64,000 nucleotides of DNA from Promethearchaeota archaeon. Lineage in GTDB: Archaea; Asgardarchaeota; Lokiarchaeia; Sigyniarchaeales; SOKP01. Shown piece after piece: positions 1,802 to 26,605 of this stretch (its first letter is position 1; every line of letters starts with the position of its first letter). The notes beneath the pieces are model-generated. The model did no database searches. It worked only from the letters and a program-made list of their open reading frames with translations, and was not told the DNA's origin. Both the position numbers and the translations under genes were made by a program. The stretch is from assembly GCA_048937405.1 (NCBI GenBank), contig JBHLNF010000001.1, positions 720,785-784,784 on the forward strand, read 5' to 3'.

Positions 1802-3991
1802 TTATTGTTGATGATTTCTATTTTCAAGTCTACTGATTCTTTCTCCTAAATTTTCTATTTTTCTAATTATACTGTCAAGTTTTTCATCTAACATAAGACG
1901 AAATCGTTCATATATGTCCGTAATACTCTTTTCACGTTCTTTTTTACCCATTAAATCAATTTCGCGTTTGAAATTTTCAATGTATTTATATACATCCTCA
2001 CACAATGTATCAAAATTTTCAGTATCATATTCCAAGCCTAGTTCTCTTGAAAGATTTCTTTCAGCTAAATCTGACCATTCTACATCTTTCCCTTTTAAAG
2101 GAATCACAGGAATTGAGAATTTATCCGCTAATTGTAATTCATTAGTGCAATCTACAGAATCAAAAACAGATTTGTTTGTTGCAATGAATAATACTAATTG
2201 ACATTTCTGTACTGTATCTAGCATCCATTCATCAATATTGCCCGCGAGATCTTCTTCACAGAAAAAAACTTCAGATATCTCTTTTTGTTTTTCCAGAAAA
2301 TCTACAAGAGTTCCTATCTGATATGGTTCAAAATCGATTACTGCATGAGATATAAAAACTCTTATTGTCGCTTTCTTTCTTAGATATTTTAATATTAGGT
2401 CAGGTACTTTTTGTGAAATCGTTATTTCTTCAGATTCAAATGGATTGTTGGTTAGATTCAATTCAGCAAGTTCTTTTAGAGCCCATAATTCAGTTGGTAT
2501 ATTAGTAAGTTTATTATTACTTAAATTTAGATTTTTGATGGCTGTCAAATTAATAAATGATTCTGGAAGTTCAGTTATTTGGTTATTTGAAAGGCTGACT
2601 TCCTCAAGTTTAGTGCAATTTCCAATTGAGCTTGGCAAAGATGTTATACTATTATCATTTAGGATTAAATGCCTTAAATCTTTCAATAATCCTAAATCCT
2701 CAGGCAATTGGGTTATAAATTGTCCTGTAGCACTAATTCCAATAATTTGATTTTCTTCGACTAATACCCAAAAACCATTTTGATCGGGCATTTCTCCCAT
2801 TCTTATCATAGGTTTTGCTCTTGAGGATATTTGTGGAAGCACTTTAATTAATGATTCTGGTATATCCATTAAATAAAACCAGAACATAGGCGGTAATCCA
2901 GTTATTCTTACTTTATTTGCTCTAATCTTTTTTATTGCATTAAGATTTGCTCTATAAAACTCTAAATCTTTATTTGCATATGTTAAATTCTGAAGAGTTT
3001 TTATTTCAGCTAAGAATTCTGGGATGGGATTGATATCATTACCATCTAAATTCAAATTTCTTAGCTTTTCAACATTTTTTAGTGTTTCTGGTAAAGATTT
3101 TAGGTTATTTTTTGGTAGATATAAACTTTCAAGTTTATTTAGATCTCCAATGATATCTGGTAAGGAACTTATTTGATTTTCATCAAGATATACTTCTTTT
3201 AAATTTTCTAATTTACCAAAACTATTAGGTAGAGTTGTAAGTTTATTTCTCTTTATAATTAATTGAACTAGATTTTTTAAATTACCAATATTCTCAGGTA
3301 AATATAATATTTGATTATTACTCATATCCAACCTTTTAAGATTTTTAAGGTTTCCAAAAGCCTCAGGTACAGATAATAGGGAATTCAAATTTAATTCTAA
3401 GGTTTCTAAATTTTCAAGTGTTCCAAAGTTATCTGGTAAGTATTTTAATTGATTTCTTTTCAATGTTAATCTTTTTAAACTTCTCAAATTCCCAAATGAT
3501 TCTGGCAGAGTTGTTAATTCATTGCCCCAAAGTTCAAGAACAACTAAATTTTCCAAATTTCCAAAACTATTAGGGAGCATATTTAATTTATTATTACTTA
3601 ATGTTGCAAATTTTAAATTTCTTAGATTTCCGAAACTTTCTGGTAAGGTAGCTAATTCTGTGTGCTGTATTACAAGTTCTTCTAAACTGAATAACTCCCC
3701 AAAGCTATCTGGCAAAGATTTTAATTTATAGGCTTCTAATGCAATTATTTCTCTTAGATTTTTCAAATTACCAACACTTTCTGGTAGACTTTCAAAAGCT
3801 GAAGAACTGATATTTAATTTATTTAAGGATTTTAATTCTCCAATAACATATGGAATGCTTGTTTTTTCAATACTTCCTAGATTAAGATCCACAGCATTAC
3901 TGTCATCATACTTAACTCGAGTTTCAAGAGATATACCTAACTCTTCTTCAATTTGTTTAATTATTTCTTTATCATCTGTCACTTTTTTCAA
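1802..3991 (-). CDS. LRR-TIR-coiled-coil protein
   Basis: Many 23-aa LxxLxLxxNxLxxLPxxFGxL repeats in two blocks. TIR domain RVFISH...DCTNEL...IPVIPL, then a C-terminal heptad coil. TTG start. Confidence 0.9.
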   Translation of the reverse strand: MKKVTDDKEIIKQIEEELGISLETRVKYDDSNAVDLNLGSIEKTSIPYVIGELKSLNKLNISSSAFESLPESVGNLKNLREIIALEAYKLKSLPDSFGELFSLEELVIQHTELATLPESFGNLRNLKFATLSNNKLNMLPNSFGNLENLVVLELWGNELTTLPESFGNLRSLKRLTLKRNQLKYLPDNFGTLENLETLELNLNSLLSVPEAFGNLKNLKRLDMSNNQILYLPENIGNLKNLVQLIIKRNKLTTLPNSFGKLENLKEVYLDENQISSLPDIIGDLNKLESLYLPKNNLKSLPETLKNVEKLRNLNLDGNDINPIPEFLAEIKTLQNLTYANKDLEFYRANLNAIKKIRANKVRITGLPPMFWFYLMDIPESLIKVLPQISSRAKPMIRMGEMPDQNGFWVLVEENQIIGISATGQFITQLPEDLGLLKDLRHLILNDNSITSLPSSIGNCTKLEEVSLSNNQITELPESFINLTAIKNLNLSNNKLTNIPTELWALKELAELNLTNNPFESEEITISQKVPDLILKYLRKKATIRVFISHAVIDFEPYQIGTLVDFLEKQKEISEVFFCEEDLAGNIDEWMLDTVQKCQLVLFIATNKSVFDSVDCTNELQLADKFSIPVIPLKGKDVEWSDLAERNLSRELGLEYDTENFDTLCEDVYKYIENFKREIDLMGKKEREKSITDIYERFRLMLDEKLDSIIRKIENLGERISRLENRNHQQ

Positions 3992-4092
3992 ACCATTTAT
4001 ATTTTTCTAATTTTGAAATAAAAAAAAGATATTTCTTAATCTAAATTATTAATTTTGTTTTTCATTGAAAATAAACTTTAAACATTAATTAT

Positions 4093-5787
4093 TTAACTTT
4101 TTTTTTCGAGGTTTTCGATTCTATCTGTAAGACTTTTCATATTACTAGTTAATCCATCTATTTTTCTGATTACTTCACTCAGTTTCTCATCTAACATAAG
4201 ACGAAACCGTTCATAAATGTCTATTATTCCTAATCGTCGTTCCTCCTTTTCCATTAAATTAATTTCTCGCTTGAAATTTTCAATGTATTTGTATACATCA
4301 GAGCAAAATTGGTCGAAGTTATCAATATTATATTCTAATCCTAATTCCCGAGAAAGGTTTATTTCCGCCAAATCTGGCCAACCTATATCTTTACCCTTTA
4401 TGGGAATGACTGGAATAGAGAACTTATCAGCGAGCTGCAGTTCATTGGCACAATCTACGGAATTAAAAACTGATTTATTAGTCCCAATAAATAAAATTAG
4501 TTGACTCTTTTGCACAGCATTTAGCATCCACTCATCAATATTACCAGCAAGATCTGACTCACAAAAAAATACTTGAGATATTTCTTTTTGTTTTTCCAAG
4601 TATTTTACAAGCTCTTCTATGCGATAAGGCTCAAAATCGATAACTGCGTGAGATATAAAAACTATTATTGTAGCTTTCACTCTAAGGTATTCTCTAATTA
4701 AATCTGGAACTTTTTGTGAAACAACCATCTCTTCAGGATTTAGAGGATTGTTGGATAAATCTAAATCAGTAAGCTCTTTAAGTCCCCATAATTGTGTAGG
4801 GATCTCACTAAATTGGTTATTGTTAAGATTAAGATTATTAATCGACGTTAAATTAACAAAAGATTCTGGCAAAGTAGTCAATTTATTACTAGATAAATCG
4901 AGAATTTCTAAATCCTTTAATTCTCCAAAAGACTCTGGCAACGCTTCGATTTGATTACGCGAAATTATCAATGATTTTAGATTATTAAAAATTCCAAAAT
5001 TCTCTGGTAAGGATTTAATGCCATACCCAACAAATTTCCACTCCGTGACTTTACCATCCTCTACTTTTATTGCTAACCTAGATATCCTACCCTTTTTTTC
5101 ATCTTGAATGGTATCTTTTTCAATTTCACGTATGATCTCAATCTTTTCTTTAGGGAGATCATGCATTGCTTGAAACTGAAGTATAGCTGGTGCGAGTATA
5201 GTACCTCCTCTTTTATAAACACTTTTTAATACATTGAGACTTATATCATTCCATTCAAGATTATTAAATACTACTTTCAAGGTTTTTAGATTATCTAAAT
5301 TTCCTAACCATTCTGGTAAAAAATTCAAATTATTATTCTGCACATTAAGATGAGATAGGTTGTTAAGTTCCTTCATCCAATCAGGTATAGATGCTAACTC
5401 ATTAGTCTCTAGATTAAGACGGTTCAAATTCTTAAGCTCTCTCATCCATTCAGGTAATGACTTTAAATGGTTGTCCGATAAGTTTAATGATTCTAAATCT
5501 TTGAAATTTCTAATAAAATCTGGAACTTTATCAACCACTTTATATTTTAGACTTAAACCTTTTAGAGATTTAAGATTGCTCACAGAGTCATATACTTTTT
5601 GTTGATCTTGCTCAGATAAATCTAAATAATAGAAATTAATACCTATATATATTACATTATCTCCTTTAAGATAATAAAAAAATTCAGCATTATCTAAATT
5701 TTGTTCATAATAATCGTCGTGAATTTTTTTTAATTCCTTTCCTGTAAGTTTTGAGATTTCTTTAATTACTTTTAAATCATCACTCAT
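4093..5787 (-). CDS. LRR-TIR-coiled-coil protein (paralog of 1802..3991)
   Basis: LRR repeats, TIR VFISH...DCANEL...IPVIPI, C-terminal coil. GGTGA SD before the ATG. Confidence 0.9.
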   Translation of the reverse strand: MSDDLKVIKEISKLTGKELKKIHDDYYEQNLDNAEFFYYLKGDNVIYIGINFYYLDLSEQDQQKVYDSVSNLKSLKGLSLKYKVVDKVPDFIRNFKDLESLNLSDNHLKSLPEWMRELKNLNRLNLETNELASIPDWMKELNNLSHLNVQNNNLNFLPEWLGNLDNLKTLKVVFNNLEWNDISLNVLKSVYKRGGTILAPAILQFQAMHDLPKEKIEIIREIEKDTIQDEKKGRISRLAIKVEDGKVTEWKFVGYGIKSLPENFGIFNNLKSLIISRNQIEALPESFGELKDLEILDLSSNKLTTLPESFVNLTSINNLNLNNNQFSEIPTQLWGLKELTDLDLSNNPLNPEEMVVSQKVPDLIREYLRVKATIIVFISHAVIDFEPYRIEELVKYLEKQKEISQVFFCESDLAGNIDEWMLNAVQKSQLILFIGTNKSVFNSVDCANELQLADKFSIPVIPIKGKDIGWPDLAEINLSRELGLEYNIDNFDQFCSDVYKYIENFKREINLMEKEERRLGIIDIYERFRLMLDEKLSEVIRKIDGLTSNMKSLTDRIENLEKKS

Positions 5788-7544: not shown

Positions 7545-7822
7545 GTTTTATGACACTAGAAAAATTGAATGATCTATAGTTTATTCTTGCTTTTTAGAAA
7601 TAAAAAAGTTAACGATATCAAACAAATGCCAATCAATTCTTGAAACAAATAACAAAAACTTTTTTAGGTTCTTTTCTATAAATAATATAATAAATTGATG
7701 TAAACATAATAAGTCTGTCTTTGATAAAAAGAACTCAATAAATGTGAATCTGGTATGGATTTTAATAGAAAAAATGTTCTTGACCAATATATTTCTATAT
7801 TGAGTTTCTTCATTTTAAATGA

Positions 7823-7848
7823 ATTTAATAACAATTTTGTTATTAAAT
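7823..7848. promoter_or_regulatory. Perfect 12-bp inverted repeat overlapping a TATA-like element upstream of the his leader (candidate operator)
   Basis: ATTTAATAACAA-tt-TTGTTATTAAAT. It contains TTTAATAA about 30 nt upstream of the GTG at 7857. Confidence 0.5.
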
Positions 7849-7856
7849 CGAATGAT

Positions 7857-7919
7857 GTGAGAGTTGATTGCTTAAAAAACATTAATTCATACTTGCATCA
7901 TTGGCTACATCATGAATAA
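7857..7919 (+). CDS. Putative His-rich leader peptide of the his operon (MRVDCLKNINSYLHHWLHHE; the frame extends to an ATG at 7755)
   Basis: CAT CAT TGG CTA CAT CAT GAA TAA gives 4 His in the last 7 sense codons, 81 nt upstream of hisIE. The start codon is uncertain (GTG 7857, TTG 7800 or ATG 7755). Confidence 0.7.
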   Translation: MRVDCLKNINSYLHHWLHHE

Positions 7920-7990
7920 TTCCGATGAATTAGTATAATATTTTATCATTTATTCATCGGAATAAAATCGAACTAAATTATTTTAGTTTG
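7919..7990 (+). promoter_or_regulatory. his leader RNA structures (attenuator-like)
   Basis: Perfect 12-bp stem ATTCCGATGAAT (7919-7930) / ATTCATCGGAAT (7952-7963) starting on the leader stop codon. A second stem CGAACTAAA-ttat-TTTAGTTTG (7969-7990) abuts the GGGGGA SD. Confidence 0.65.
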
Positions 7991-8000
7991 GGGGATAATT

Positions 8001-8909
8001 ATGATAATATTAAAAATTAATATGAAGGATATGGAAACGGTTGGAGGCTTAAAAGAGTTTATAGATGGAGTATTTACAAAACGAAATTGGGATTTGTTTA
8101 TAACTCTTGTTCTTGAAGCTAATAAGGAAAGCCTTATTACACTGATAAAGGATGATATGCTTAAGATGGTTTCTAATAAGGTTAAAATATGGATAAATTC
8201 AGAAAATAATCAAAAAGAATTAATTAATTTAATAACAGAAAAGGGAATGACGATATACAATTCAGAATCTCATAAAAATGATGAGGTTTTAAGTTTGGAT
8301 TCAATAAAAGATTATTCATCAATAGATAATATTTTGTTTAAGATTTTAGATTTTGATAAAGCTAATGGACTGATACCAACAATTGTACAAGACCTTAATG
8401 ACAATGTACTAATGCTTGCATATTCATCAAAAGAGTCCTTGAAGGTTACAATCAAATATAGAAAATCAACTTATTTTAGCAGATCGAGGAATCGCCTATG
8501 GACTAAAGGTGAAGAATCAGGAAATTATCAAATTGTAAAGAGCATTCTTTACGATTGTGATGCGGATACTTTATTATTTAGGGTAAAACAGAAAGGTTTT
8601 GCTTGTCATAAAGGTACTTATTCTTGTTTTCAGGATCGGAAATTTTCTATAGGATATCTCTATGATTTAATAGTTGATAGAATCAAAAATTATAGTGTAA
8701 ATGAATCCTATAGTAAAAGACTTGCTGAGGATAATGAATTATTAATGTCTAAAATTGAGGAAGAGTGTAACGAAGTGATAAATTACACCGATAGGGATAA
8801 CTTAATTTGGGAAATTGCAGATATTGCATATTTTATTCTTGTATTAATGGCTACCAAAAAAATTAAACCTGAAGAAATAATAAATGAATTAAAGAGGAGG
8901 AACAAATGA
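8001..8909 (+). CDS. hisIE: Bifunctional phosphoribosyl-AMP cyclohydrolase / phosphoribosyl-ATP pyrophosphatase with a ~105-aa N-terminal extension
   Basis: HisI motifs GLIPTIVQD, SRSRNRLWTKGEESG, DCDADTLL, ACHKGTYSCF. HisE motifs SYSKRL, KIEEE, EIAD. Confidence 0.92.
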   Translation: MIILKINMKDMETVGGLKEFIDGVFTKRNWDLFITLVLEANKESLITLIKDDMLKMVSNKVKIWINSENNQKELINLITEKGMTIYNSESHKNDEVLSLDSIKDYSSIDNILFKILDFDKANGLIPTIVQDLNDNVLMLAYSSKESLKVTIKYRKSTYFSRSRNRLWTKGEESGNYQIVKSILYDCDADTLLFRVKQKGFACHKGTYSCFQDRKFSIGYLYDLIVDRIKNYSVNESYSKRLAEDNELLMSKIEEECNEVINYTDRDNLIWEIADIAYFILVLMATKKIKPEEIINELKRRNK

Positions 8910-9925
8910 AAGAAGATCAACAAAATTTATTTCCAAAATATAGATCTCGTCAAGTGAGATTAGCACTTCCTTCGAAAGGAAGAATGGAAGTTGAAACTCA
9001 AGAATTTTTAAGAAATTGCGGCTTTAATATACAAAGAAATAATAGACAATATATTGGAACAATAAAAGGACCTATAAATCTTCAATTGGTCTATCAACGA
9101 CAAGTAGATATTGTTAGGGGCATATTGAATGGGTCTTTAGAAATGGGTATTGTCGGTTATGATCTAGTACATGAATATTCATCTTTAGATGAACACGAGT
9201 TAATCATTATGCACAATGCATTAAACTTTGGAAAATGCAGCCTTGAAATAGCAATTCCTGAAGGATGGTCAGAAAAATCAATTGAAGAGATTAAACAGAA
9301 GAAGAAGTCAATTCGAGTTGCGACTAAATTTGCAAAACTCACAGATCAATTTCTCAAATCATTTGATATTAACTATGAGTTAATTCAGGGTAATGGTTCT
9401 CTTGAGGTGTATCCTGAATTAGGGTATAGTGATATTATAGTCGATCTTGTATCAACAGGTCAAACTTTAAAGGATAATCGATTAAAAAGGATTAAAGGTG
9501 GGCAAATAATGACTTCTGAGGCGGTACTTATTGGAAATCGAACAGCTTTAAAAAATGAGACTGTTTTAAAAGTTGCTCGTCAGGTGATTGAGTTTATTGA
9601 AGCTACTTTGAGAGCTCAAAATTTTGTTTCAATTTTTGTAAACATGAGAGGAGAAAGCCCAGAGGATATTGCTAATAATATTTTTTCTAAAGAGGGTCTT
9701 GAAGGGCTTCAAGGGCCTACAATCTCACCCGTCTTTACAAAAAGTAGAGAAAAAATGTATGCCAGTCATGTCATTGTTGAGAAAGAGAAATTACAACAAG
9801 CAATAAGAATTTTAAGAGAAATTGGGGGTAGTGGTGTGGTTGTTGCACCTACACTTTATATTTTTGAAGAAGAACCATTAAGGTATATTAAATTATTAAA
9901 AAATTTGGGGATTTATGATGATTAA
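8906..9925 (+). CDS. hisG: ATP phosphoribosyltransferase, long form
   Basis: RLALPSKGRM, GIVGYD, RVATKF, IIVDLVSTGQTLKDNRL, C-terminal GLQGPTISPV. Confidence 0.95.
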   Translation: MKEDQQNLFPKYRSRQVRLALPSKGRMEVETQEFLRNCGFNIQRNNRQYIGTIKGPINLQLVYQRQVDIVRGILNGSLEMGIVGYDLVHEYSSLDEHELIIMHNALNFGKCSLEIAIPEGWSEKSIEEIKQKKKSIRVATKFAKLTDQFLKSFDINYELIQGNGSLEVYPELGYSDIIVDLVSTGQTLKDNRLKRIKGGQIMTSEAVLIGNRTALKNETVLKVARQVIEFIEATLRAQNFVSIFVNMRGESPEDIANNIFSKEGLEGLQGPTISPVFTKSREKMYASHVIVEKEKLQQAIRILREIGGSGVVVAPTLYIFEEEPLRYIKLLKNLGIYDD

Positions 9926-11249
9926 AACTTATACAGTAGATGAGGCAAGAAAATCAATATTAAAAAGAGAACTTAGTTCTTCAAATGGAAATCTCAGAAG
10001 TGAAGGTGTTACTCCAGAGGAAAGTGTAAAGGCTATTGTAAAAGATGTAAAAGAAAGAAAAGATGCTGCACTTAAAGATTGGACATTAAGGTTTGATAAA
10101 GTAGAAATTGATCAATTTGAATTATTAGATGTTGATTTTGAAAAATATCTGAGCTCTATCAATCCTAAGTTAAGAGAAGCTTTAGAAATAGCATGCGACA
10201 GAATTTATAATTTTCATGAATCTCAACCTATCATCTCTTGGATGAATCACAAACTTGGAGGTCAAATAGGTCAAATAATAAAACCTATTGAAACAATAGG
10301 GATATATATTCCGGGAGGAATAGCTCCTCTGTTTTCCTCAATTTTAATGGCAGCCATACCAGCCATTGTAGCAGGTGTTAAAAATATTATATTCAGTTCT
10401 CCTCCCAATAAGCAAGGTAATTTACCAAACATTATCCTCGCAACTTTTGGGTTAATCAAGAAGTATGATATTAATATGAGAATTTTTAGAATAGGTGGAG
10501 CTCAAGCTATTGCAGCTATGGCATTTGGAACGGAACAAGTTCCCAGAGTAGATAAAATCGTAGGACCTGGAAATATCTATGTAAATTTAGCAAAGAAAGA
10601 AGTTTATGGAATAGTAGGAATTGATGGGATATATGGACCTACTGAAGCATTGGTAATTGCTGATGAAACAGCAAATCCCTCATTAGTTGCTTCAGATCTA
10701 TTAGCACAGGCAGAACATGATATTTTAGCCATTCCAATCTTAGTTACTTCTTCTGAAAATCTAATTTCATCTGTGAAAAAAGAGTTGGAAAGGCAAATTA
10801 TAACTCTGAAAGGAAAAGCTATTATTAAAGAATCTATTCAAAGCAATGGTGGTATTATTTTAACAAATTCAATAGAACAATCGATATTAATTTCAAATGA
10901 ATTTGCACCCGAACATTTATCTCTTATGATTAAAGAGCCTATGAAAGTTTTAGACAAAATAGAAAATGCAGGAGGAATTTTTATTGGAGAAAATTCCTTT
11001 GAAGTTTTAGGTGACTATATTGCAGGACCTAGTCATGTGATGCCGACAAATGGCACAGCTCGTTTTTCATCTGCTTTATCAGTTTATGATTTTATTAAAA
11101 GGATTAGTTATGTTTATTTAAATGAAGAAACATCTTTTAACTTATCTAAACATGCTGAAATAATAGCAAATTCTGAAAATTTAACAGGACATGCAAAAGC
11201 AGCGGCTTTAAGAACAACTCTAAATAAAAATACAAAGGAGGGGAGTTAA
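9915..11249 (+). CDS. hisD: Histidinol dehydrogenase
   Basis: GIYIPGG, GGAQAIAAMAFGT, GPGNIYV, DLLAQAEHD, APEHL, LGDYIAGPSHVMPT. Confidence 0.97.
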   Translation: MMIKTYTVDEARKSILKRELSSSNGNLRSEGVTPEESVKAIVKDVKERKDAALKDWTLRFDKVEIDQFELLDVDFEKYLSSINPKLREALEIACDRIYNFHESQPIISWMNHKLGGQIGQIIKPIETIGIYIPGGIAPLFSSILMAAIPAIVAGVKNIIFSSPPNKQGNLPNIILATFGLIKKYDINMRIFRIGGAQAIAAMAFGTEQVPRVDKIVGPGNIYVNLAKKEVYGIVGIDGIYGPTEALVIADETANPSLVASDLLAQAEHDILAIPILVTSSENLISSVKKELERQIITLKGKAIIKESIQSNGGIILTNSIEQSILISNEFAPEHLSLMIKEPMKVLDKIENAGGIFIGENSFEVLGDYIAGPSHVMPTNGTARFSSALSVYDFIKRISYVYLNEETSFNLSKHAEIIANSENLTGHAKAAALRTTLNKNTKEGS

Positions 11250-12383
11250 TTGGATAAAAAAAATTATATTATTAAACCATCGAAAATCATTCGGAAGTTC
11301 TTAGATTCACAGAATTATGATTCACTTTCATATTTAGATAAATCAAGTCAGGAAAATGAGATGATTTTTTTAGATAAAAATGAAAGTCCTTTTGTACCGC
11401 CTTTAGGGGATTTAGTTAATTTAAAGTCATTAAATATCTTAAAAAATTATCCAGATTTGAATGCTAATACATTTTTGGATAAACTATCAAAGGATCTTAA
11501 AATTCCTATTTCATATTTTTTAGCAGGAACAGGCTCTAATGAAATAATAGGTCTGATCATTAAGATCTATGCCACTCCTAAAACTAAAATTTTAAGCATT
11601 AATCCAACCTTTTCAATGTATCAATTCTTTGCTAATATAAATGGTGCAAAATATGAATCGTTTCCCTTAAGATTATTAATAAATAAAGCAACGGGAATTG
11701 CGGAATATGATTTAGATCAATCTGGTTTTATGAAAAGGGCTAAATCATCAAATATTATAATCTTAGCGCGACCAAATAATCCAGATGGGATTATAATCTC
11801 TCTTGATTTTATTAAACAACTTCTAAAATTGAAAAAGTTAGTAATTATTGATGAAGCTTATATTGATTTCAGTGATGGTCCGAGTTTAATAGATTTCATC
11901 AAGTCTTATGATAATTTAATTATTTCTCGGTCATTTAGTAAGTCTTACTCTCTTGCAGGATTAAGATTAGGGTATACAATATCAGATCCTTCTATTAATG
12001 AGATATTAATTCGTATAAAAAGCCCCTTCAATGTGAATAATCTAGCTTTGCAGTATGGTTTATTATTACTAGATAAGAAGGATGAGATTTCAGCAAATAT
12101 TAATAAAATTAAATCAATTCGACAAGAATTTTTTAAGGATCTTCTTAGTTTAAGAGAAAAAAATAAAACTTTTTATATACATCCTAGTCAAACGAATTTT
12201 ATTTTATTAAGATTTGAATCTTCTAAAATATCAGATTCAGTTTATCAATACTTATTAAAAAATAAAATTAAAGTAAGAAATTATGGAGAAGAACTTTCAA
12301 ATTGTTTAAGATTTTCAATAGGTACAAGATTACAAATGAAAAAGGTAATAGAAATATTGAAATCATATTTTGAGGAGAATTAA
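11250..12383 (+). CDS. hisC: Histidinol-phosphate aminotransferase
   Basis: LDKNESP, GSNE, PNNPDG, IDEAY, RSFSKSYSLAGLRLGY. TTG start with a GGAGG SD. Confidence 0.92.
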   Translation: MDKKNYIIKPSKIIRKFLDSQNYDSLSYLDKSSQENEMIFLDKNESPFVPPLGDLVNLKSLNILKNYPDLNANTFLDKLSKDLKIPISYFLAGTGSNEIIGLIIKIYATPKTKILSINPTFSMYQFFANINGAKYESFPLRLLINKATGIAEYDLDQSGFMKRAKSSNIIILARPNNPDGIIISLDFIKQLLKLKKLVIIDEAYIDFSDGPSLIDFIKSYDNLIISRSFSKSYSLAGLRLGYTISDPSINEILIRIKSPFNVNNLALQYGLLLLDKKDEISANINKIKSIRQEFFKDLLSLREKNKTFYIHPSQTNFILLRFESSKISDSVYQYLLKNKIKVRNYGEELSNCLRFSIGTRLQMKKVIEILKSYFEEN

Positions 12384-12384
12384 T

Positions 12385-12990
12385 ATGGAAAGAAAAGCAA
12401 AATTAGAAAGAAAAACAAAAGAGACCAGTATTGAAATCGAAATGAATATTGATGGAAGTGGAGATACTAAGATTAATACCTCCATTGGTTTTTTTGATCA
12501 TCTTCTTACCCAGATTGCTGTTCATGGATCATTTGATATGAAAATTCTTGCAGAGGGTGATCTTAATGTTGATAATCATCATTTAATTGAGGATACTTCT
12601 ATTGTTTTAGGTAAAGTTTTCAACAAGGCTTTGGGAAATAAAATTGGCATTACACGAGTTGGACATTGCTTTTTTCCCATGGATGAGAGCCTTGCGTTTG
12701 TTGCTATAGATATTTCTTCAAGACCATTTTTTAAAAAAGAAATTAATTGGACAAATCCATTTTTAGGATCTAAGGAGGATAATTTAATCCCAGTCGATTT
12801 AATAGAGCATTTTTTATATACATTTTCAATTAATGCCCAAATAACACTTCATGTTAGAGTCCTCTATGGTCAAAATAACCATCATATTGCTGAAGCGATA
12901 TTTAAAGCTCTGGGCAAAGCATTGGATTATAGCTCTAGAATTGATTCAAAGGGGAATCGAAAACTTCCTTCAAGTAAAGGAATATTATAA
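12385..12990 (+). CDS. hisB: Imidazoleglycerol-phosphate dehydratase (monofunctional)
   Basis: RKTKET, FFDHLL, DNHHLIED, PMDESL, NNHHIAEAIFKA, PSSKG. Start placed at ATG 12385, after a GAGGAG SD. Confidence 0.95.
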   Translation: MERKAKLERKTKETSIEIEMNIDGSGDTKINTSIGFFDHLLTQIAVHGSFDMKILAEGDLNVDNHHLIEDTSIVLGKVFNKALGNKIGITRVGHCFFPMDESLAFVAIDISSRPFFKKEINWTNPFLGSKEDNLIPVDLIEHFLYTFSINAQITLHVRVLYGQNNHHIAEAIFKALGKALDYSSRIDSKGNRKLPSSKGIL

Positions 12991-13003
12991 GTTGGTTTTT
13001 AAC

Positions 13004-13597
13004 ATGATTACTATAATAGATTATGGAAGTGGCAATCTTCGGTCGATTCAAAAAAGTGTCCAAAGATTTTATCCGAAGGTAATTATTTCAAGAGATCTTG
13101 CTTTAATAGAGAAATCTAAAGGTTTAATTCTTCCTGGAGTAGGCGCATTTGGTGATGCTGTTAAAGAACTCGAACAATATGGGTTATTCTACCCATTAAA
13201 AGATATTATTGAAACAGTTCCAACAATGGGAATTTGCTTAGGCATGCAGCTATTATTTTCAAATTCTGAAGAATCTCCAGATGTTAACGGATTAGATATC
13301 ATCCCCGGAAAGGTGACTAAATTAGACTCATATCAATCAATCAGAATCCCTCATACTGGATGGAATAGACTAATTCCATCATCGAAACCATATTTTTATG
13401 GCTATGTATACTTTAATCATTCATATTATTGTGACCCTGATGATAAAAATTATATAATCTCTTATGTAAATCATGGGATTTCAATTCCAGTTATAATCTT
13501 AAAGGATCACATAATTGCTGCTCAATTTCATCCTGAGAAAAGTCAAAATGCTGGTGATAGAATTATCAATTATTTCATTTCCTTAATAAAGAGGTGA
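13004..13597 (+). CDS. hisH: Imidazole glycerol phosphate synthase, glutaminase subunit
   Basis: IIDYGSGNLRS, LPGVGAF, GICLGMQ, QFHPEKS. Start placed at ATG 13004. Confidence 0.95.
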   Translation: MITIIDYGSGNLRSIQKSVQRFYPKVIISRDLALIEKSKGLILPGVGAFGDAVKELEQYGLFYPLKDIIETVPTMGICLGMQLLFSNSEESPDVNGLDIIPGKVTKLDSYQSIRIPHTGWNRLIPSSKPYFYGYVYFNHSYYCDPDDKNYIISYVNHGISIPVIILKDHIIAAQFHPEKSQNAGDRIINYFISLIKR

Positions 13598-13604
13598 CTA
13601 TATT

Positions 13605-15107
13605 ATGAAAAAAATAATACCAGCTATGGATCTTTTAGATGGTAACGTGGTTAGGTTATATAAAGGGGATTTTGATAGAATTGATAATTATTATAAAAGA
13701 CCTGTTGAACTTCTTAAGCAATTTTTTAATCAAGGGATTGAGCAAATACACGTTATAAATCTAAATGGAGCAAAATCAGGTGAATTTGAGAATGGACCTA
13801 ATTATGATGTTATTCGATCTTTAATTCAAGAAAGTAAAAAATGGGGTTCTAAAATTCAATTAGGAGGGGGTATTAGAACAGAAAGAACTATTAGAGAATT
13901 ACTTGATCTAGGACTTTATAAGGTTATTATAGGTACTATTACTATTGAAAATCCAACTCTTTTTAGACATTTAATGAAAAAATACAAAGATGATATAATA
14001 GTTGCACTGGATGTTCTTAATGGTAATTTGAGAATAAAGGGTTGGCTCGAAGATTCTAATATCAATTTAGAATCTCATTTTAAAACTTTGGAAGAACAAG
14101 GAGTTTCAAACTTTATAATAACTGATGTTTCACGAGACGGAACGTTAGGAGGTCCTAATTTTCAGATCTACAAGAAAATCTCAAATCTCAGATATCCTGA
14201 CACTAGAATAATCGCTTCTGGAGGTATAAGTAATTTAAATGATATTAACCAAGTTCTAAATTATGCAGATGGTGTAATTATCGGAAAAGCTTATTATAGC
14301 AATAAAATAAGCAATAAAAATCTAAGAGATTTAACAAAGAAGTATGACCCCACTAATTTAGCAAAAAGAATAGTGCCATGCCTTGATATTAAAGATGGAA
14401 GAGTAGTAAAGGGTGTTCAATATATCAACTTACGAGATAGTGGAGATCCTGTAGAACTATCTAGATTCTATAATACAGAAGGCGCGGATGAATTAGTATT
14501 CCTAGACATTTCTGCAACTTTAGAAAAACGATCAATATTGTTTCAAACTTTAAGAAAAGTTTCTGAACAGGTATATATTCCTTTTACAGTAGGAGGTGGT
14601 ATTAGAAATTTGAATGATATAACAAATATCATTAATGCAGGGGCAGAAAAAGTAAGTATTAACACTGCTGCTGTAGATAATCCCAAAGTTATCACTGAAG
14701 GTGCTCAAAAGTTTGGAAGTCAGTCTATTGTGTGTGCAATTGATGTAAAAAAAAAAGGAGATGCTTGGGAAGTATATATAAAGGCGGGTACTGAATCAAC
14801 AGGATTAGATGCAATAGAATGGGCAAAAGAAGTTGTTGAAAGGGGAGCAGGGGAACTACTTGTTACTAGTATGGATCGAGATGGTACTCAAATAGGCTAC
14901 GACTTTAAATTAATTCAAAGTCTCACTAATGTGATATCTGTACCATTAATTGCTTCAGGTGGAGCAGGTAATTATGAACATTTTTATCAAGCTATTAAAG
15001 CTGGGGCAGAGGCGGTCTTAGCAGCATCTTTATTCCATACAAAGACAATAAAAATTAAGGATTTAAAATCTTATCTTCATAAGAGAGATATAAAAGTTAG
15101 ATTTTAG
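13605..15107 (+). CDS. hisA/hisF: HisA-HisF fusion protein
   Basis: N-terminal half: [43 protein letters not shown]-terminal half from ~14358: [37 protein letters not shown]. Confidence 0.95.
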
Positions 15108-25121: not shown

Positions 25122-26363
25122 TCAGGTTCTATAAGATCCATTAATTCGAACATAATCATAACTTAAATCACATCCCCATGCGATTGCTTCACTTTCTCCA
25201 TCCTTTAAAAGCAATTCTACAATAATTTCATTTTCTTTTAATATTTTTAGTGCTAAATCTTCATCAAATTGTAAAGCACTTCCATCTTTCATAACCTCGA
25301 TTGAATTAACATCATTCAAAAATTTTATTGATACTTTTAATGGATCAAATTTTGCTCCAGAGTAGCCCATTGCAGCAATAATCCTACCCCAATTTGCGTC
25401 TTCTCCAAAAAAGGCTGTCTTTACTAAATTTGAGGTTATTACGGATTTACTTAAGATTTTTGCATCTTGTTTTGATGCAGCTCCTTTGACGTGAACTGCA
25501 ATAAATTTGCTAGCTCCTTCTCCATCTCTTACAATCTCTTGAGCTAAATATAAATTTACATAGTGAAGTGCGTTTTTAAAAATAAAATATTCTTCACTTT
25601 CATCAAAAATTTCTGAGTTATTACCCATTCCATTAGCCAAAAGAATTACTGAATCACTGGTACTTGTATCACCATCTACAGAGATCATATTATATGATTC
25701 TTCAATACTTTCTCTAAACGCTTTTTCTAATAATTCTTTTGAAATATTAATATCAGTTGAAATAAATGAAAGCATAGTAGCCATATTTGGATGAATCATT
25801 CCAGAACCCTTCGCCATCCCTCCTATTCTAATTTTCTTATTATCAATAATAAATTCAACCGAGATCTCTTTAGGATGTGTATCTGTCGTCATAACTGCTT
25901 CAGCAGCTAATCTTGCATCTTTATCTCTACTCCCTATGTTTTTATACGTATTTTTAATACCCTCAATTATAATTTCAATTGGAAGAGGCTTTCCAATAAC
26001 TCCTGTAGAAGCAACAATTACTTGATTTTTCTTTATTCCTAAACAAGAGGCTAACTCAGCTGCCATCATTTCATTATGTTTAATTCCCATTTCTCCTGTA
26101 CAAACATTCGCATTTCCACTATTAACGACTATGCCTTGTATCAAATTGTGATTTTGAATAAGATTTTGATTCCATAATACAGAAGGAGCTTTTACAATAT
26201 TTGTAGTAAAAACCCCTACTGCTTTAGCCGGAACTTCACTATATACTATAGCTAGGTCTTTCTTGCATTCTTTAATCCCTATATGGCAACCAGTAGCATG
26301 AAATCCTTTTGGACTTGTAATTCCTCCTTTTAATTTTGTTATATCAATATTTTTTTTTTCCAT
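25122..26363 (-). CDS. argJ: Ornithine acetyltransferase / N-acetylglutamate synthase
   Basis: NSGNAN, STGVIG, MTTDT, KGSGMIHPNMATML (autoproteolysis Thr), DGEGA, NWGRI, WGCDLSYDYVRINGSYRT. Confidence 0.97.
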   Translation of the reverse strand: MEKKNIDITKLKGGITSPKGFHATGCHIGIKECKKDLAIVYSEVPAKAVGVFTTNIVKAPSVLWNQNLIQNHNLIQGIVVNSGNANVCTGEMGIKHNEMMAAELASCLGIKKNQVIVASTGVIGKPLPIEIIIEGIKNTYKNIGSRDKDARLAAEAVMTTDTHPKEISVEFIIDNKKIRIGGMAKGSGMIHPNMATMLSFISTDINISKELLEKAFRESIEESYNMISVDGDTSTSDSVILLANGMGNNSEIFDESEEYFIFKNALHYVNLYLAQEIVRDGEGASKFIAVHVKGAASKQDAKILSKSVITSNLVKTAFFGEDANWGRIIAAMGYSGAKFDPLKVSIKFLNDVNSIEVMKDGSALQFDEDLALKILKENEIIVELLLKDGESEAIAWGCDLSYDYVRINGSYRT

Positions 26364-26509: not shown

Positions 26510-26605
26510 TTAAAGACGGCGACGTGCCGAGTATAGATTGCGTAGTGCTTTTTGAAATTGTTTTCCTACAATTTCGTTATTCATATAAGAATCAAATAAA
26601 ATCAT
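26510..26605 (-). CDS. Putative Arg-rich leader peptide of the argJBDCG operon (MILFDSYMNNEIVGKQFQKALRNLYSARRRL; alternative start at 26584)
   Basis: ATG preceded by GGTG at 8 nt. The ORF ends GCA CGT CGC CGT CTT TAA, and all four Arg codons are CGY. It lies 146 nt upstream of argJ. Confidence 0.78.
   Translation of the reverse strand: MILFDSYMNNEIVGKQFQKALRNLYSARRRL

Follow-up and report, generated by a model that had tools for sequence, protein, structure and literature searches.

Leader-peptide attenuation is a textbook mode of control in Bacteria, and the hisL leader of enterobacteria consists of 16 codons, seven of which encode histidine. We describe here a leader upstream of the his operon of an Asgard archaeon that shares with hisL a cluster of His codons in a short ORF ahead of the his operon, control codons that at 11 of 17 loci can pair with a segment behind the stop codon (1:2 pairing), and a post-stop hairpin predicted to form only while the ribosome is short of the stop codon, like the 2:3 anti-terminator. 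It differs from hisL in its 54 codons with four His, in the archaeal polymerase, in a predicted ribosome-free fold that is the ON hairpin, and in the absence of a region 4, of a hairpin-plus-U-run terminator and of an Rfam match. Because the 3:4 terminator and its U run are absent, the Asgard leader falls outside the hisL family.

The mycobacterial poly-Cys leaders (Ms5788A; bioRxiv 10.1101/834739) likewise carry cognate codons at the end of an upstream ORF, have no intrinsic terminator and show structure that extends to the downstream Shine-Dalgarno (SD) sequence. However, they are leaderless, whereas the Asgard leader has its own SD, and in mycobacteria a stable duplex hides the downstream SD until stalling frees it, whereas we found no conserved SD-hiding duplex for the Asgard leader. 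Among 17 homologous loci a duplex hiding SD or AUG was predicted in one subclade and not in the others, and its register was uncompensated. Bacterial leaders in which RNA structure or translation of an upstream ORF gates Rho, such as those of Salmonella corA and of thiM (reviewed in PMC13675443), follow the logic that we propose below, in which structure and ribosome position control the access of a termination factor. They differ in that the Asgard factor would be the nuclease aCPSF1/FttA and the signal His-tRNA, and the Asgard leader has no conserved U4 loading sequence.

No report of an archaeal leader-peptide attenuator was found in the literature searched, which covers few subscription journals. 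In a review of archaeal coupling the word attenuation is absent and competition between ribosome and aCPSF1 is treated as speculation (PMC8116511), and direct functional evidence of archaeal coupling is still scarce (PMC13681488). Since its control codons are defined and its hairpin shows compensation, this small, conserved element brings the question of coupling within reach of a reporter test. Asgard archaea are the lineage closest to eukaryotes, and whichever of the outputs considered below is right, the wiring of this element would be unlike that of E. coli hisL.

The his operon and its leader ORF

The window (the whole stretch of DNA analysed, 64,000 nt) is AT-rich with about 29% GC, and its hisIE gene is 84% identical to hisIE in a Promethearchaeota record (Asgard, Lokiarchaeia type). 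The following features were assigned:

8001-15107, forward strand: his operon, seven genes (ORFs) in the order hisIE-hisG-hisD-hisC-hisB-hisH-hisA/hisF fusion
8001-8909, forward strand: hisIE, NCBIfam match HisIE
8906-9925, forward strand: hisG, NCBIfam match HisG
9915-11249, forward strand: hisD, named by sequence motifs and operon position
11250-12383, forward strand: hisC, named by sequence motifs and operon position
12370-12990, forward strand: hisB, named by sequence motifs and operon position
to 13597, forward strand: hisH, named by sequence motifs and operon position
13605-15107, forward strand: hisA-hisF fusion, NCBIfam matches HisA/HisF
7990-7994, forward strand: SD-like GGGGG of hisIE, 6 nt upstream of the ATG
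7755-7919, forward strand: leader ORF of 54 codons, ATG at 7755 to TAA at 7917-7919, C-terminus YLHHWLHHE
7654-7667, forward strand: candidate archaeal BRE/TATA-type promoter, an A-run, a C and then TTTTTTAG

The four His codons of the leader (7896, 7899, 7908 and 7911) lie within its last seven codons. An unbiased scan of the window genome yielded 4170 candidate upstream ORFs, among which the hisIE leader was the only one with four His in the last nine codons and also the only one combining a helix of at least 12 bp at the stop codon with an energy of -22.3 kcal/mol or lower. A His-rich ORF directly 5' of hisIE was found at 17 homologous loci (16 genomes and one metagenome contig), which represent about 7-8 sub-lineages and are not independent samples. 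The leader frame was open over 38-77 codons in all 17, and length differences among the homologous leaders were whole codons. In 16 of the 17 loci the His cluster ended 1-3 codons upstream of the stop codon, and the distance from leader stop to hisIE ATG was 75-87 nt in the 16 loci where it was measured. The leader starts aligned as ATG or TTG, each following an SD-like word (GTGA/GGTG-like), which is GTGA at 7744-7747 in the window. A GTG at 7857 was rejected as start codon; it is not conserved and reads GTA in most homologs, while the ATG at 7755 aligns. From these features, the element very probably senses histidine as a gauge read by the ribosome.

At the hisIE SD position every homolog carried GGGG or GAGG, and the SD consensus of the window genome is GGAGG/GAGGT/GGTGA. 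The candidate promoter was kept at the same place in most homologs with a hisIE leader, including G112 and G128 despite upstream DNA unlike that of the window, and we infer that it is the promoter, with a putative start site near 7690.

The leader peptide was poorly conserved apart from the words LS and I-R/K-S-x-D-V, which were semi-conserved. In the +1 frame, 12 of the 17 loci had a stop codon (TAA, TAG or TGA) 19-22 nt past the leader stop (7936-7938 in the window), and at 11 of the 17 a -1-frame stop overlapped the last His codon. These stops may reflect pairing in the upper stem of the hairpin described below, or may trap slipped ribosomes. The HisIE protein of the window has an N-terminal extension of 110 aa, and its type of HisG is patchily distributed (32 of 160 class genomes at E <= 1e-50). 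Further upstream, on the reverse strand (1802-5787), two genes in tandem encode proteins with leucine-rich repeats and a TIR-like domain at the C-terminus.

Two conserved hairpins behind the leader stop codon

7919-7963, forward strand: hairpin H1, a 12-bp stem (7919-7930/7952-7963) with an irregular upper stem, the proposed switch element
7969-7990, forward strand: hairpin H2, 9 bp (7969-7977/7982-7990), its last base being the first G of the hisIE SD

Both stems had been proposed in a first-pass annotation of this DNA, and both proved real and conserved in homologs with compensatory change. Segments 7919-7930 and 7952-7963 are exact reverse complements, the former beginning on the last base of the TAA, and H2 includes one G-U pair (7970:7989). 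Region 7915-7995 folded into the two adjacent hairpins at -25.5 kcal/mol (z -5.8), with none of 200 shuffles as good, and H1 alone reached -16.3 kcal/mol (z -5.3). H1 was part of the ground-state fold in the absence of a ribosome, and H2 was present in every modelled ribosome state. H1 was 96-98% paired with two-sided changes at three pairs, the eight core pairs of H2 were 100% paired and included a G-C/A-U swap, and both together were 98.6% paired in 14 sequences with two-sided changes at four pairs; these change counts are inflated by relatedness, the alignment spanning 7-8 sub-lineages. Sliding the partners as a control lowered pairing to 17-59%.

Across homologs H1 started within about 2 nt of the leader stop, and it was retained with different sequence in G145, G030 and G150. 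In G145, G030 and G067 a different small hairpin over the SD takes the place of H2. We regard the 12-bp stem as a genuine, conserved component of what is probably a ribosome-based histidine gauge in this Asgard archaeon.

A covariance model of the element recovered only its 13 input his leaders, one per genome, and no copies before other genes in 134 family genomes, while missing the diverged leaders of G145, G030 and G067. The earlier view that H1 is not a bacterial intrinsic terminator was correct: no hairpin-plus-U-run was found in the leader region, where H2 is separate from H1 and is followed by G's. In the homolog alignment there was no conserved downstream partner ("region 4") for the 3' arm of H1. 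The Rfam search, which included His_leader, gave no match at gathering score and three weak unrelated matches (E 0.77-3.7), and candidates for a bacterial-type terminator, a sigma-70 promoter, a tRNA or an Rfam family were rejected as not above chance. Each H1 arm (7917-7932 and 7950-7965) is itself a 6-4-6 palindrome, so that a freed 3' arm could fold into a small hairpin of its own; as DNA the pair of arms resembles two operator sites.

Competing pairings and helices within the leader

The first-pass annotation had further claimed three pairings as mutually exclusive competitors of these stems. All five claimed pairings are present in the sequence (the 9-bp stem with its G-U pair): 7883-7890 with 7925-7932 and 7912-7919 with 7950-7957 are perfect 8-bp complements, and 7937-7949 in the H1 loop forms 11 bp plus a 2-nt bulge with the hisIE start at 8001-8011. 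Conservation extended to H1 and H2 and not to the three competitors. Covariation analysis showed compensation in H1 and H2 and in none of the competitors, and all three were missing from the 25 lowest-energy folds.

Only the two closest genomes keep the 7883-7890/7925-7932 pairing intact. It had 62.5% of cells paired and no compensation, and we rejected it as a lineage-restricted chance match. The 7912-7919/7950-7957 pairing, with 83.7% of cells paired, no two-sided change and the central pair broken in 9 of 13 sequences, was rejected as a by-product: the last His-Glu-stop bases repeat the 5' arm of H1, and the segment would be under the ribosome in both translating states. The pairing of the loop with the hisIE start was 71.3% paired and uncompensated; in the window genome (G000) the loop had a z of 0.7 against shuffled loops, and outside one subclade (G146, G001, G147) it was no better than shuffled loops. 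As the three competitors are AU-rich, uncompensated and absent from the best folds, they are probably chance matches, and most of the network of mutually exclusive pairings that had been proposed is due to chance. The suggested role as "anti-terminator or anti-sequestrator" does cover two live hypotheses, but its specific exclusive partners are unsupported.

Features missing from the earlier annotation were three conserved helices inside the leader ORF and a pairing of His codons with the 5' arm of H1:

7733-7740 with 7798-7805, forward strand: helix P0, surrounding the leader SD and start codon, able to form only once codon 17 is transcribed
7827-7832 with 7839-7844, forward strand: hairpin P1, inside the leader ORF
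7851-7861 with 7892-7902 (first two His codons), forward strand: helix P2, 11 bp in G000
7898-7904 (His/Trp codons) with 7922-7928 (5' arm of H1), forward strand: alternative 1:2 pairing, excluding H1 and P2

In this AT-rich leader, for which the alignment search lists 36 "conserved" helices of at least 5 bp, P0 was paired in 98% of cells (13 sequences) with one G-U variant and no two-sided change, and P1 in 96% with one two-sided change, an extension of P1 adding further compensatory pairs. P2 was paired in 76% of cells with two-sided changes at three pairs and is deleted in G128; its duplex was better than shuffles (z < -1.5) in 12 of 17 loci. The 1:2 pairing was paired in 87% of cells with one two-sided change (G117), reached z < -1.5 in 11 of 17 loci and was missing from G150, G145 and G030.

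A possible histidine gauge with termination as output

For the his leader we place just short of an even chance on a histidine gauge that is read by the ribosome and has co-transcriptional termination by aCPSF1/FttA as its output. In the first step, which is well supported by sequence conservation, a ribosome on the 54-codon leader would slow at the four His codons when His-tRNA is scarce. The second step we infer from ribosome geometry. A ribosome covers about 9-12 nt beyond its A-site codon. Stalling at the His codons would leave 7919-7930 free, and H1 would form during transcription; H1 and H2 would then hold nearly the whole untranslated spacer of 81-87 nt double-stranded, the polymerase would reach the hisIE SD, and the operon would be ON. 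With ample histidine, a ribosome at the stop codon would cover about 9-12 nt beyond it and block H1, leaving about 36 nt of nascent RNA (7931-7967) single-stranded and untranslated. In the third and least certain step, aCPSF1/FttA, the archaeal homolog of eukaryotic CPSF73/INTS11, would cut the exposed stretch and end transcription (OFF). P0 may restrict repeated loading of the leader, leaving the decision to the first ribosome.

It had been suggested before that a ribosome at the stop codon opens the stem, and the position of H1 fits this, while a ribosome on the first His codons would be expected to leave H1 intact. H1 would thus be the ON state, and its competitor would be the ribosome itself rather than a downstream RNA partner. 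Since H1 is the ground state without a ribosome, a passing ribosome would open it only briefly, which would favour an irreversible, co-transcriptional outcome.

The window genome encodes a protein of family TIGR03675, presumably aCPSF1, above cut-off at G000:C16:29825-31705. The modelled unpaired fraction of an FttA-sized window was 0.39 for a stall at the first His codon, 0.50 at the last His codon and 0.59 at the stop codon, and it rose toward the stop in 16 of 17 loci, a rise that is partly built in by masking. In nascent RNA an FttA terminator extends over nt -1 to -36 (PMC11616081), a span equal to the freed stretch of about 36 nt in the window. Lokiarchaeal aCPSF1 terminates in vivo and works in Methanococcus maripaludis, and 79% of units without a U4 tract are still aCPSF1-dependent; best binding occurs with two U4 tracts (PMC8716108). 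In the hisIE-type family we found no pyrimidine excess after the leader stop (0.40-0.57 versus a background of 0.48). A U4 tract at +18 to +58 after the stop was present in 3 of 16 hisIE-type homologs and two tracts in none; G000 has a single U4 at 7941-7944.

Other points weigh against a termination output. When the stall is at the last His codon, the ribosome is predicted to clip H1 at its base, and a stalled ribosome uncouples transcription, which should itself favour FttA.

Alternative interpretations

A translational attenuator, with the same His-codon sensor and access to the hisIE SD and AUG as output, seems possible but rather unlikely; transcription polarity could then be secondary. 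In one variant a ribosome at the stop codon would free the loop and 3' arm of H1, which would pair with the SD/AUG (the anti-sequestrator idea). In the other, 7909-7915 (last His codon and stop region) would pair with 7999-8005 around the AUG at rest, and a stalled ribosome would open this closure. Control of translation makes a U tract unnecessary and has a precedent in the mycobacterial poly-Cys leaders (bioRxiv 10.1101/834739), and the fixed short spacing, with a nearly constant stop-to-ATG distance and H2 adjoining the SD, fits it at least as well as termination. Opening of SD-AUG was predicted to be costlier with the ribosome at the stop than with a first-His stall by 1.7-5.0 kcal/mol in G146, G001, G147, G112, G128 and G150, and in G000 the opening energy at the stop was 1.4 above that at the last His codon; the mean difference between states, however, was about 1 kcal/mol, and it was near zero in 8 of 17 loci. 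The loops of G146, G001 and G147 outdid shuffled loops (z 1.6-4.0 with the 5' arm of H1 masked), but the mean z was 0.36 and only these three related genomes exceeded 1.5, G000 reaching its 0.7. Similarly, the closure of the AUG by His codons is part of the minimum-energy fold of G000 but outdid shuffles in no genomes beyond the three closest, and codon identity dictates its core, CAU:AUG. In the homologs no register of pairing with SD or AUG was conserved or compensated, and no conserved anti-SD was found.

We regard as improbable a different output, in which H1 and H2 serve as processing or stability elements or as protein sites and ribosome position alters mRNA decay, or in which the nascent peptide causes arrest. 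In H1, H2 and P0 not only the pairing but also the sequence of both strands is almost invariant, and at 36-54 codons, including the LS and I-R/K-S-x-D-V words, the leader is long if it only gauges codons. These words, however, coincide with arms of P0, P1 and P2, G128 lacks their DV part, conservation of the remaining peptide is poor, and no candidate protein was identified.

Still less probable is the absence of any ribosome switch, with hairpins that are constitutive or act as DNA inverted repeats for a regulator and a His-rich ORF that is incidental or a relic. Ten relatives (L049-L058) have hisIE-hisG(-hisD) without such a leader, the self-complementary H1 arms could be read as DNA sites, and leader translation is read from sequence features. 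Against this, G-U pairs are allowed at several positions, which indicates pairing at the RNA level, and the open frame is kept with whole-codon indels and SD-led starts. Clusters of cognate codons also precede five biosynthetic operons in one genome, and in another genus and family, where the gene order differs, His leaders are again found upstream of hisC. Most of the ten leaderless relatives share their upstream neighbourhood with the leader-bearing G128, which suggests gain or loss of the leader at one locus; their HisIE is roughly 400 aa long.

Hungry-codon frameshifting into hisIE was rejected (an open +1 frame extends to the ATG region at a single locus of the 17, G101, and an open -1 frame at none), as was reinitiation or coupling from the leader stop, which has the wrong sign for a biosynthetic operon and is at odds with the varying frame of hisIE relative to the leader.

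Similar leaders in this and related genomes

For Asgard amino-acid operons in general, leader-peptide attenuation in which a ribosome-gated hairpin shields nascent RNA from aCPSF1/FttA is a tentative proposal, which we consider somewhat more likely to fail than to hold. In the scan of 4170 upstream ORFs, ranks 3, 4, 10 and 11 were a Trp leader of trpB2, a Leu leader of leuA, the His leader of hisIE and a Trp leader of trpD, and an Arg-rich leader was found upstream of argJ in the same genome. Three more distant genomes encode a His-rich ORF upstream of hisC, the first gene of an operon with the order hisC-B-H-F-A-IE-G-D (L076, L077, L078); one of them is the cultured Lokiarchaeum ossiferum B35 (G055; L078, about 5250-5490). 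Unlike the hisIE-type leader, these hisC-type leaders combine pairing between His codons and the post-stop region with a pyrimidine tract. Pyrimidine-rich tracts (0.65-0.72 versus a background of 0.48) were found 18-58 nt past the stop of the sister leaders (trpB2, trpD, argJ and hisC-type His), and those of the trpB2, trpD and argJ leaders lie 146-186 nt from the start codon; these tracts speak for termination as the output.

The same leader as in the window occurs in L062 (G101, of the window's genus), whose hisIE is 84% identical and whose label "Candidatus Odinarchaeota" may be a mislabel. The Leu leader (L070, C7, leuA) is like the His leader in having a hairpin directly past the stop, with an 87 nt spacer. 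The Trp leaders of trpB2 (L069, G000:C7) and trpD (L071, C11) have a small hairpin across the stop, and their pyrimidine tracts lie at a distance of 149-186 nt from the gene. Another Trp-rich ORF (L072, G000:C28, upstream of 5609), ending in WFWVLHWHV, lies 212 nt upstream of a gene for a GNAT-methyltransferase fusion, which has no evident connection with tryptophan. Within the window, the argJ leader (26510-26605, reverse strand) has 31 codons with the C-terminus ARRRL and precedes argJ at 25122-26363. Behind it lies a long hairpin; the 3' arm of this hairpin, a tract rich in U and C that contains three U5-U6 runs, is 146 nt from argJ.
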